From a virus, in IMG/VR virus record IMGVR_UViG_3300009551_000003, positions 32,001-96,000 of that record: DNA of 64,000 nt, one strand, 5' to 3'. A program made the position numbers and the translations under genes. Shown piece by piece: positions 41,983 to 42,579 of this stretch. The notes under the pieces were generated by a model, which worked only from the letters and a program-made list of their open reading frames with translations, did no database searches and was not told the DNA's origin. The stretch's first letter is position 1. Each line of letters starts with the position of its first letter.

Positions 41983-42579
41983 ATGAAAGATAAACTCGGC
42001 CACGGCAGTAATCCGAGAGGTGTGACGCAGGGCATCAACGGGAGCCATTTGCCGGTATGGTATCATGGTTCGCCAACCGGCAAGCCACATTCAAAAGGTC
42101 CAATTCATCTAGGCACGCTAAGAGCCGCGAGAGAGGCTCTTGAATCGCGCATCGGAATCCCCGCAGATGGAAAAGGCTGGCGAGGAAAATCGGAGTACGG
42201 GAAGACTTTGCTAGCTGGACAGGACACCATGAATGAATTTGCGAAACCCGGGCATTACTACACCCCGAGTGTCCAGACTGGATTCAACGCCGATGCTCCG
42301 GACAAAAATTATTATCCAGAACCGGGCGCCGCCCACTTTAGCGATGGCTCTCCTGTCCCGATGAACGCAAAGCCTGACGTTCGCATGTATGAGATCACCG
42401 GAGCGATGGGTAATAGCCCGTCCACCGCCTATTCCGACACAAAAGCAAATGCACTCGCCAAGGCACAAGTGACCCGAGGTCGCGGTGTTCATGGCTTCTA
42501 CTATGAAAACGATGGAGAAGACGCGGGCTCGATCTCCGCCGTAGTGCCAAGTGCCAAGCACCTCAAAGGGCCGGTCTAA
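41983..42579 (+). CDS. MKDxxGHGS-tagged protein 13, ADP-ribosyltransferase-like
   Basis: MKDKLGHGSNPRG; WYHGS, IHLGT..AA, GFYYEN..ED.GS.S. Confidence 0.75.
   Translation: MKDKLGHGSNPRGVTQGINGSHLPVWYHGSPTGKPHSKGPIHLGTLRAAREALESRIGIPADGKGWRGKSEYGKTLLAGQDTMNEFAKPGHYYTPSVQTGFNADAPDKNYYPEPGAAHFSDGSPVPMNAKPDVRMYEITGAMGNSPSTAYSDTKANALAKAQVTRGRGVHGFYYENDGEDAGSISAVVPSAKHLKGPV

Follow-up and report, generated by a model that had tools for sequence, protein, structure and literature searches.

A tagged ADP-ribosyltransferase-like gene inserted in the tail operon of an uncultured rhizosphere siphophage-like virus

The Alt protein of phage T4 is an ADP-ribosyltransferase (ART) of the R-S-E type that is packaged in the virion and injected, and it carries an N-terminal capsid targeting sequence (CTS), a peptide that is common to other cargo proteins as well. 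Here we describe a gene, P0001, which lies at 41983..42579 on the plus strand of a stretch of 64,000 nucleotides (positions 32,001 to 96,000 of the IMG/VR virus record IMGVR_UViG_3300009551_000003; hereafter the window, to which all gene coordinates refer) and which codes for a protein of 198 amino acids (aa) in which a 13-residue peptide tag precedes an ART-like domain. The virus genome is a single contig of 118,695 bp with 57.7% G+C and is complete, since the ends of the contig overlap by 123 bp; its source is an uncultured rhizosphere siphophage-like virus of 118.7 kb, and P0001 is an accessory gene (moron) inserted in the tail operon of this virus. T4 Alt, as a late, tagged and packaged ART, is the closest functional model for how P0001 may act. 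However, Alt belongs to another ART clade, P0001 having H and not the R of R-S-E, and the two tags differ in sequence.

A further basis for comparison is provided by the polyvalent proteins of phages. These are predicted to be packaged and injected in the available parts of two studies (PMC5512222; PMC9503650), the first of which gives InPase, ART-PolyVal, LPD and MuF domains as their domain repertoire and describes ART-PolyVal (PF18760) as an ART with H in strand 1, Y in strand 2 and D in strand 5. The ART-like domain of P0001 resembles polyvalent and MuF-fused effectors in that it recurs as a module of proteins of 600-4950 aa with InPase, LPD1, LPD38, MuF and SNF2-type helicase domains, whereas P0001 itself is a single 198-aa gene that has a leader instead of a fusion and is located in the tail module, not beside the portal gene. 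Finally, KptA and RES enzymes share the ART superfamily with these proteins and, according to the available part of PMC9503650, transfer ADP-ribose to phosphate.

The P0001 protein and its ART-like domain

P0001 comprises the following elements.

41983..42579, plus strand: tagged ART-like gene P0001 (198 aa), accessory insert in the tail module (translation, homologues, bridging contigs)
41983..42021, plus strand: N-terminal tag MKDKLGHGSNPRG, residues 1-13, of the kind that heads 13 of 13 scanned genes
42022..42051, plus strand: short and variable linker from the tag to the first strand, residues 14-23 (alignment)
42052..42567, plus strand: conserved ART-like domain, residues 24-195 (homologue matches, AlphaFold2, structural matches)
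42064..42072, plus strand: strand-1 motif H28-G29-S30 with the predicted NAD-binding His (conservation, aligned YHGT)
42106..42117, plus strand: strand-2 motif H42-L-G-T45 (conservation)
42154..42375, plus strand: family-specific insert, residues 58-131, with the near-invariant IGIPADG..W.G.REYGKTLLAG
42493..42549, plus strand: C-terminal beta-hairpin G171..P189 with invariant Y174, N176, E179, D180 and S185

The original prediction, made from the letters of the window, held that the start of this gene is hidden in a longer reading frame. The table-11 list of open reading frames (ORFs) indeed contains only one long frame at this place, 41791..42579 (262 aa, TTG start), with the ATG at 41983 inside it, and the recorded gene call, P0003, is a 116-aa truncation that starts at M83. 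Translation from 41983 yields 198 aa with the N-terminus MKDKLGHGSNPRG, and all three motifs that had been read from the sequence are found in it, namely WYHGS at residues 26-30, IHLGT..AA at 41-49 and GFYYEN..ED.GS.S (here GFYYENDGEDAGSIS) at 171-185. The start at 41983 is supported by full-length homologues, which are conserved from residue 1 and the closest of which show 53-65% identity over 98-100% of the 198-aa query, and by the two invariant residues H28 (256/256) and H42 (259/259), both of which lie upstream of M83. An N-terminus of the form M(P)KDAxGHGS is present in 14 of the 35 aligned homologues and in 53 of the 261 collected ones. Moreover, contigs of three other rhizosphere runs span the junction of P0001 with the upstream tape measure (TMP) gene (41535-42064, 41835-41999), and contigs of other runs also span its junction with the downstream distal tail (Dit)-like gene (42543-42693), in either case with zero differences; no form that skips the gene was found among the contigs of other runs over these junctions.

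The ART-like domain belongs to a large family, known otherwise mainly as a module within giant polyvalent proteins of phages. Near-length homologues of P0001 number 127, and 265 cluster representatives match at E <= 1e-3, 103 of them at or below 1e-30, the matched stretch being nearly always residues 24-195. The 261 collected proteins comprise 127 of up to 260 aa, 50 of 261-600 aa and 84 longer ones, with a maximum of 4950 aa, and in IMG/VR the domain lies within an ORF of more than 600 aa at 35 of 80 loci. When 15 long homologues were scanned with Pfam, 11 gave a family hit at E up to 0.001 and nine contained InPase, ART-PolyVal, LPD1, LPD38 or MuF above the curated cut-off; altogether the 15 carry InPase (4), ART-PolyVal above cut-off (6), LPD1 (2) and MuF, and also LPD38 with SNF2-type helicase, 2H phosphoesterase and radical SAM domains. 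By the company that it keeps, the ART-like domain thus appears to be a member of the polyvalent repertoire, and the earlier view that the body of the protein is an ART-like domain typical of polyvalent proteins gains support from these homologues as well as from the structural matches given below. P0001 itself falls into no family of Pfam, PHROGs or NCBIfam and matches no PDB sequence, whether searched as a single protein or as a profile, and tblastn found no match to it in 50,697 GenBank phage records or in PLSDB plasmids. The domain is also close to absent from cellular genomes: among 185,579 species genomes there are only four ART-like loci, all of them on small contigs of metagenome-assembled genomes.

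An AlphaFold2 model of P0001 built from 35 sequences has a mean pLDDT (predicted local distance difference test) of 87.8 and a pTM (predicted template modelling score) of 0.81. About four-fifths of its 50 best matches among 48,161 PDB representative chains belong to the ART superfamily, headed by the Xre-RES toxin (Z 5.0, root-mean-square deviation (rmsd) 4.1, 106 residues aligned), VPA0770 (4.8) and ParT (4.7), followed by diphtheria toxin (4.4), tankyrase-1 (4.4) and MbcT (4.3), and with PARP1-4, exotoxin A, cholix, pertussis, Arr and KptA in the lower rows. After realignment of the Foldseek candidates, 18 of 19 rows were ART-superfamily proteins, the best of which reached Z 5.2 (rmsd 4.0, 105 residues aligned), and exotoxin A, NatT and several entries with the name ART-PolyVal are found in the weak rows of Foldseek. 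RES (Z 5.0-5.2) and ParT (4.6-4.7) are the best structural matches of the model, although the strand-1 Arg of RES is absent from the ART-like domain. Weak but independent pointers came from the ESM Atlas, with template modelling (TM) scores of 0.43 for ART-PolyVal, 0.41 for PARP and 0.38 for RES, and sub-threshold Pfam matches to DarT (E 0.0069) and Tox-ART-HYD1 (E 0.064) occurred in one of the 35 members each. With 18 full-length ART-PolyVal segments, hhalign gave a likewise weak match in the last 43 columns, which correspond to the C-terminal hairpin (P 1.5e-4, probability 51%), as against P 0.25 and 0.16 for the reversed-profile controls, and a looser ART-PolyVal alignment that includes fragments is collinear from end to end at P 4-8e-4. 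We regard the ART fold as the only serious candidate and its assignment to the model as probable, because the list of matches is consistent and not because of any single score.

One match, the only one of the 19 realigned rows outside the ART superfamily, stands apart from the named ARTs. Residues 1418-1600 of chain 9k3a_B, from the pre-ejectosome of cyanophage A4, gave Z 4.2, which is in the same range; the available part of the paper on 9k3a (PMC12002296) mentions no ART domain, and we keep the match as a lead only.

The conserved residues of the domain match the ART superfamily best in strand 1. H28 is conserved throughout (256/256 sequences) and G29 almost throughout (253/256); they lie in predicted strand 25-30, where WYH28G29S30 agrees with the H/R-G-[ST] motif of the superfamily and aligns with the YHGT of ART-PolyVal and E. 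coli KptA. Strand 2 reads GxH42xGT and is followed by the helix AAxxALEARIG; H42 and G44 are conserved without exception (259/259 each) and T45 in most sequences (233/259), so that H42 stands in place of the Tyr of H-Y-E/D enzymes or the S-T-S of R-S-E enzymes. Helix 1 is followed by the insert of 74 residues, one of the best conserved regions of the family; nothing in ART-PolyVal corresponds to this insert, and it may provide the surface to which the acceptor binds. In the C-terminal hairpin, the position aligned with the Asp of ART-PolyVal GYDG is R, S, N or Q, and E179 (259/259) and D180 (249/259) are located in the hairpin loop 9-10 residues further on; Y174, N176, S185, D152, N156 and N144 are conserved too.

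The resemblance to the ART domains of polyvalent proteins that had originally been seen therefore holds for the motifs but not for family membership. The alignment consensus of ART-PolyVal reads ..VVYHGT.., ..GIYFT.., ..GYDGIVV..(loop)..EYVVF, and the two domains have in common a collinear [YW]HG[ST] strand 1, a G-h-x-h-[GT]T strand 2 with its helix and a C-terminal G-x-x-x-x-loop-strand hairpin; both are found in the same giant polyvalent proteins, and in related phages each of them is also encoded by single genes that carry the tag of P0001 and lie in slots of the tail module. Yet PF18760 (cut-off 31.2 bits) gave no hit in P0001 at E up to 10 and in none of the 35 members at E up to 0.1. An iterated ART-PolyVal profile produced 52 hits in 35 proteins, always elsewhere in the same proteins and with no overlap with the ART-like domain, and the latter differs by its 74-residue insert and at two canonical positions of H-Y-D, of which the H is present, Y is replaced by H42 and D by R, S, N or Q. 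Residues 469-625 of a polyvalent protein, P0136, form an ART-PolyVal-like segment that is intermediate between the two families: SHFGTQQAA and YTNTIEDPGS are as in the ART-like family and HDG is as in ART-PolyVal, and the segment has a P value of 3.9e-18 against ART-PolyVal and of 0.0014 against the ART-like family.

With KptA the ART-like domain shares a pair of His residues (YHGT...VHLS..GARHG in KptA, WYHGS...IHLGT..ESRIG here). KptA is not known to have a strand-5 catalytic acid, and ARTs with a strand-2 His make up the H-H-h class. E. coli KptA aligned with the 35-sequence profile at P 0.005 over 49 columns, in the ART lobe only, and PF01885 (KptA/Tpt1) has no hit in P0001 or in the genome; KptA differs, moreover, by an N-terminal RNA-binding lobe that is absent from the ART-like protein. 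We rejected a family kinship with KptA/Tpt1, as a 98-sequence KptA profile matched the 264-sequence profile of the ART-like family at P 0.054 only, and kept the shared His-His motif. Because the putative active site is non-canonical, the acceptor may differ from the protein side chains modified by T4 Alt, and since KptA and RES pass ADP-ribose to phosphate, a non-protein acceptor is a live possibility, which by this analogy we put forward as speculation. Taken together, the domain appears to represent a new ART-like family of the polyvalent-protein repertoire, one that is uncurated and that in P0001 stands behind a leader of cargo type which, as far as the available parts of the literature go, is undescribed.

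The KDxxGHGS tag and a second leader

The tag is shared by an array of genes elsewhere in the window, and a second leader is found in two genes.

10434..15666, plus strand: array of the other 12 tagged genes (six-frame scan)
21463-23988 and 24457-25428: 841-aa and 323-aa genes with the second leader, between the portal and scaffold genes

P0001 had been counted as a thirteenth tagged gene that lies 26 kb from the other twelve, and this proved accurate. A six-frame scan of the window for KDxxGHGS yielded 13 ORF starts, 12 of them in 10434-15666 and the last at 41983, a distance of 26.3 kb from the end of the array; the whole 118,695-bp genome contains no further copy, and 13 of 13 are at ORF starts. 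The genes of the array are arranged head to tail, and the small and large terminase genes follow shortly after them. Their tag has the consensus M-K-D-x-x-G-H-G-S-N-x-R-G, in which M/V-K-D, G6, H7, G8 and S9 are invariant across the 13 genes and position 13 is G in 12 of them. At the invariant residues synonymous codons differ (AAA/AAG, GAT/GAC), Ser9 being encoded by AGC, AGT, TCA and TCC, and since both serine codon families are thus in use, selection acts on the tag peptide and not on a DNA repeat. All 13 tagged proteins are small and basic (isoelectric point (pI) 8.2-10.4) and free of cysteine, and the 12 array proteins match no Pfam family at E up to 0.1. As is the case for the CTS of T4, a short N-terminal peptide is here common to several unrelated proteins. 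In the AlphaFold model of P0001 the tag region is disordered, with pLDDT below 50 at residues 8-21 and means of 47 and 40 for residues 1-10 and 11-20, respectively, and in tagged cargo of the ART type the tag ends about 12-14 residues ahead of the [WY]HG[ST] strand. A literature search for the tag string found no paper, and one on capsid-targeting sequences found nothing on the KDxxGHGS tag in the parts of papers that were available.

That the tag would work independently of its locus, as had also been proposed, agrees with its presence at two places in this genome and in two tail-module slots of related phages. The strict DNA pattern for MKDAKGHGS occurs in 66 IMG/VR stretches, often in arrays of up to five in about 2.7 kb. 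In a FastTree phylogeny all 49 tagged copies of the ART-like domain fall into one clade of 53, the four other members of which are 148, 184, 222 and 238 aa long; one of these, P0028 (222 aa), was counted as untagged but has the tag on a longer linker according to the alignment, and the others may be truncated gene calls.

The same peptide is also found inside a polyvalent protein. The 2598-aa chain of P0138 contains the GHGS tag at residues 1381 and 2113, and the copy at residue 1381 directly precedes an ART-PolyVal domain, six residues ahead of the YHGT in that domain. A second motif, [PA]RDxxG[RK][WF], stands immediately before the ART-like domain in four other proteins, and five motifs of the PRDxxGRW type are spaced along the polyvalent chain of P0137. 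In the whole genome of our virus the second motif has just two occurrences, which head the 841-aa gene and the 323-aa gene (NPSEAR[DN]xxG[RE][WF]). To judge by these sequences, KDxxGHGS and [PA]RDxxG[RK][WF] appear to be exchangeable for one another as leaders or joints in proteins of one kind. The available part of Iyer et al. 2017 (PMC5512222) makes no mention of joint motifs.

Both kinds of leader were lost in automatic gene calls: the 198-aa gene is recorded as 116 aa (leaving out 41983-42228), and the ESM Atlas entry of the 841-aa protein begins at its residue 35 and is without the leader (21463-21564). Tags of this kind may thus be under-annotated systematically. The C-terminus of the 841-aa protein had by eye suggested an R-S-E ART (YRG and E-Q-E), which found no support in Pfam, in a PDB sequence search or in the Atlas.

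The insertion in the tail module

The genes that flank P0001 are as follows.

39666..41981, plus strand: TMP gene, 771 aa (six PHROGs matches, five of them named tape measure)
42579..43052, plus strand: Dit-like distal tail gene, 157 aa (tail-tube/Dit fold of the model, Z 8.2; position)
43054..45615, plus strand: tail hub-like gene, 853 aa, used as synteny anchor (47 related IMG/VR loci)

P0001 is closely packed between its neighbours. The stop codon of the TMP gene, TGA, is at 41979-41981 and the ATG of P0001 at 41983, 2 nucleotides (nt) downstream, and the TAA of P0001 overlaps the ATG of the next gene in TAATG at 42577-42581, so that the two junctions measure 2 nt and -1 nt. A scan for promoters and terminators revealed nothing that distinguishes P0001 from the tail operon, and there are no terminator-like sites on the plus strand in 41158-44022. 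From the tight junctions and the lack of a plus-strand terminator-like site we infer that P0001 is expressed late, together with the tail genes. Upstream of the TMP gene, at 38494, lies a gene for the pre-tape-measure chaperone PF23789.

The 157-aa Dit-like protein has no matches to Pfam or PHROGs families. Its AlphaFold model (pLDDT 69.3) shows a tail-tube/Dit fold, which best matches a baseplate chain of phage 80alpha (Z 8.2, rmsd 4.0, 112 residues aligned) and the Pa193 baseplate (Z 8.2), followed by the lambda tail tip (6.7), the p2 baseplate (6.1), T5 Dit (5.8) and SPP1 Dit (5.8). On account of this predicted fold and of its position, a distal-tail role for the gene is reasonable. The 853-aa hub-like protein matches neither Pfam nor PHROGs, and tblastn with it found no match in the 50,697 GenBank phage records; as the same holds for P0001, these records contain no cultured relative. 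Whereas a synteny scan with the single 853-aa sequence returned no loci, a scan based on an alignment of the protein gathered tail modules from 47 IMG/VR loci, 40 of which have both the TMP and the Dit-like gene and were used to count the spacing between the two.

In 33 of these 40 relatives the TMP and Dit-like genes are no more than 110 nt apart. The claim that P0001 interrupts genes which are normally adjacent is thereby supported, and because the two genes abut in these relatives we conclude that P0001 is an accessory insert. The comparison of presence and absence at this locus, which had been suggested along with the claim, places an ART-like gene of the P0001 type between TMP and Dit in five of the 40 relatives (three of them near-identical), and the remaining two have other gaps at this place. 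In one further relative the ART-like gene is located one slot downstream, between the Dit-like and the 853-aa gene. The third-position G+C of P0001 is 0.548, compared to 0.614 for the TMP gene, 0.671 for the Dit-like gene, 0.711 for the 853-aa gene and 0.798 for the capsid gene.

The Dit-like and 853-aa genes lie close together in the window, but 22 of the 40 relatives have a gap of more than 110 nt at this junction. In this second slot the relatives carry seven distinct tagged genes, from six distinct phages (loci L085/L086/L103, L094, L096, L097, L098 and L101, with three genes in L101), and five loci have untagged genes there (L088, L089, L092, L099 and L125). Two of the tagged slot genes exceed the Pfam ART-PolyVal cut-off (34.1 and 39.2 bits vs 31.2) and one has a sub-threshold ParB_N match; phage L098 combines an ART-like gene in the first slot with a tagged ART-PolyVal gene in the second. 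The junctions that flank the Dit-like gene are thus hot spots for the swapping of tagged effector genes in this phage group. The untagged 144-aa protein in the slot of L089 has a signal-peptide-like start.

Elsewhere in the window, two large genes are located between the scaffold and major capsid genes, at 26906-29443 and 30389-32413, which is an unusual site for fibre-like genes; by Pfam/PHROGs, one of them codes for an 845-aa beta-helix protein and the other for a 674-aa protein with tail-fibre-type repeats. A gene for an RtcB RNA ligase (Pfam E 1.5e-65) lies at 3722-5068 and is followed at 5555-6261 by seven tRNA genes (Pro, Trp, Gln, Thr, Met, Ile, Asn).

Possible roles of P0001 in infection

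What would such a gene do for the phage? We favour the view that this accessory gene of the tail operon codes for a protein consisting of a disordered 13-residue leader and a 172-residue domain of the ART superfamily, which is carried in the virion and uses NAD+. P0001 would be expressed along with the tail genes at a late stage of infection, its leader would dock it onto an internal component of the virion, and carried in the particle it would enter the next host together with the DNA. There, early in the new infection, the ART-like domain would act with NAD+ on a target of the host and modify or consume it. The dependence on NAD+ is inferred from the predicted fold and the conserved polar residues. 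As a whole we consider this account a tentative one, to which we give somewhat less than an even chance.

Several observations weigh against it. The original prediction had asked for a structural check of the body of the protein, and an ART-like fold is indeed predicted for residues of about 24-195, but all structural scores are weak, Z never exceeding 5.2, Foldseek found nothing at E <= 1e-3 in PDB or BFVD, and none of the Pfam ART models matches the domain. Two of the three classical catalytic positions differ, and by its sequence the domain could instead be a binding module. That the gene lies in the tail module is in itself no sign that its product is loaded into the head, and a Pfam and PHROGs scan of 30 ORFs identified neither a prohead protease family nor a candidate receptor for the tag. 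Finally, since the 49 tagged copies form one clade of 53, the tag appears to have joined the ART-like domain about once, and the evidence that it is portable comes from the other cargo proteins.

The place of P0001 raises the question of where in the particle it would be carried. It might ride with the tape measure in the lumen or tip of the tail and enter the cell before the DNA, the tail-module slots then reflecting the site of cargo assembly. P0001 begins 2 nt after the TMP gene, tagged genes of the ART type occupy both slots that flank Dit in related phages, and the available part of PMC5512222 associates T4 Alt-family genes with baseplate genes, all of which would fit this explanation. 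Yet 12 of the 13 tagged genes are grouped immediately ahead of the terminase genes, away from the tail genes, and the tag is also found in polyvalent proteins, whose relatives carry the head-associated MuF, which makes packaging in the tail rather improbable to us. Alternatively, P0001 may not be packaged at all and may act late as a cytoplasmic enzyme in the producing cell, for instance against NAD+-based defence or on nucleic acids of phage or host, with a leader that makes translation efficient, times the degradation of the protein or lets a phage chaperone recognise it. All 13 tagged genes have AAA or AAG as second codon, which fits efficient initiation, and the RtcB and seven tRNAs encoded by the phage point to an investment in RNA-level conflict. 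Translation efficiency, however, explains neither the invariant G-H-G-S nor the presence of the tag inside a polyvalent protein, and the basic, cysteine-free composition of all 13 proteins together with the cargo domains of polyvalent type fit virion cargo better, so we think it unlikely that the protein stays behind in the producing cell.

The departures from the classical active site allow for yet another explanation, namely that the ART fold is catalytically dead and serves for binding or as a decoy, for example by sequestering NAD+, signals derived from ADP-ribose or a protein of the host. The strand-2 His in place of Tyr and the R, S, N or Q at the catalytic Asp of ART-PolyVal speak for it, as does the pseudo-PARP domain of TASOR among the structural matches. 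On the other hand, more than 12 polar residues, including H28, H42, D152, Y174, N176, E179 and S185, are invariant or nearly so across 264 sequences, a pattern which is typical of an active site, and KptA-type ARTs with a strand-2 His are active according to the available part of PMC9503650; a dead fold seems to us a doubtful explanation. The tag might also be a processing joint, such that KDxxGHGS and PRDxxGRW mark the cut sites of polyvalent proteins and the single-gene copies are remnants of split ones. The internal GHGS tags at residues 1381 and 2113 of P0138 and the five PRDxxGRW-type motifs along P0137 would fit such joints. However, a cut at residue 2 would set nothing free, although purifying selection acts on the peptide in 13 single genes, and no head protease was recognised among the 30 scanned ORFs of the phage. 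We consider this origin of the tag improbable as well.

A more far-reaching proposal, which we offer with considerable reserve and judge to be rather unlikely as a whole, extends the packaged and injected reading of P0001. KDxxGHGS and [PA]RDxxG[RK][WF] would be interchangeable address or junction peptides of a widespread and undescribed cargo-delivery system, in which effectors move between polyvalent fusions and single genes. P0001 would then be an injected His-His NAD+ effector, possibly with phosphate or nucleic-acid acceptors, that is loaded from tail slots and enters at the start of infection.

If the leader does load proteins into the particle, it would be a compact and portable address label that is present in many uncultured phages, and injected phage proteins could be identified by sequence alone, whereas to our knowledge the set of injected proteins is largely unknown outside T4, P1, P22 and N4. 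Such a leader could also be reused for loading chosen proteins into phage particles. The ART-like domain would be a second ART-type family in the polyvalent proteins of phages, one that lies outside the curated libraries, and to know the target of its odd active site would help to explain how NAD+-dependent or other early defences of the host are disarmed by soil phages.

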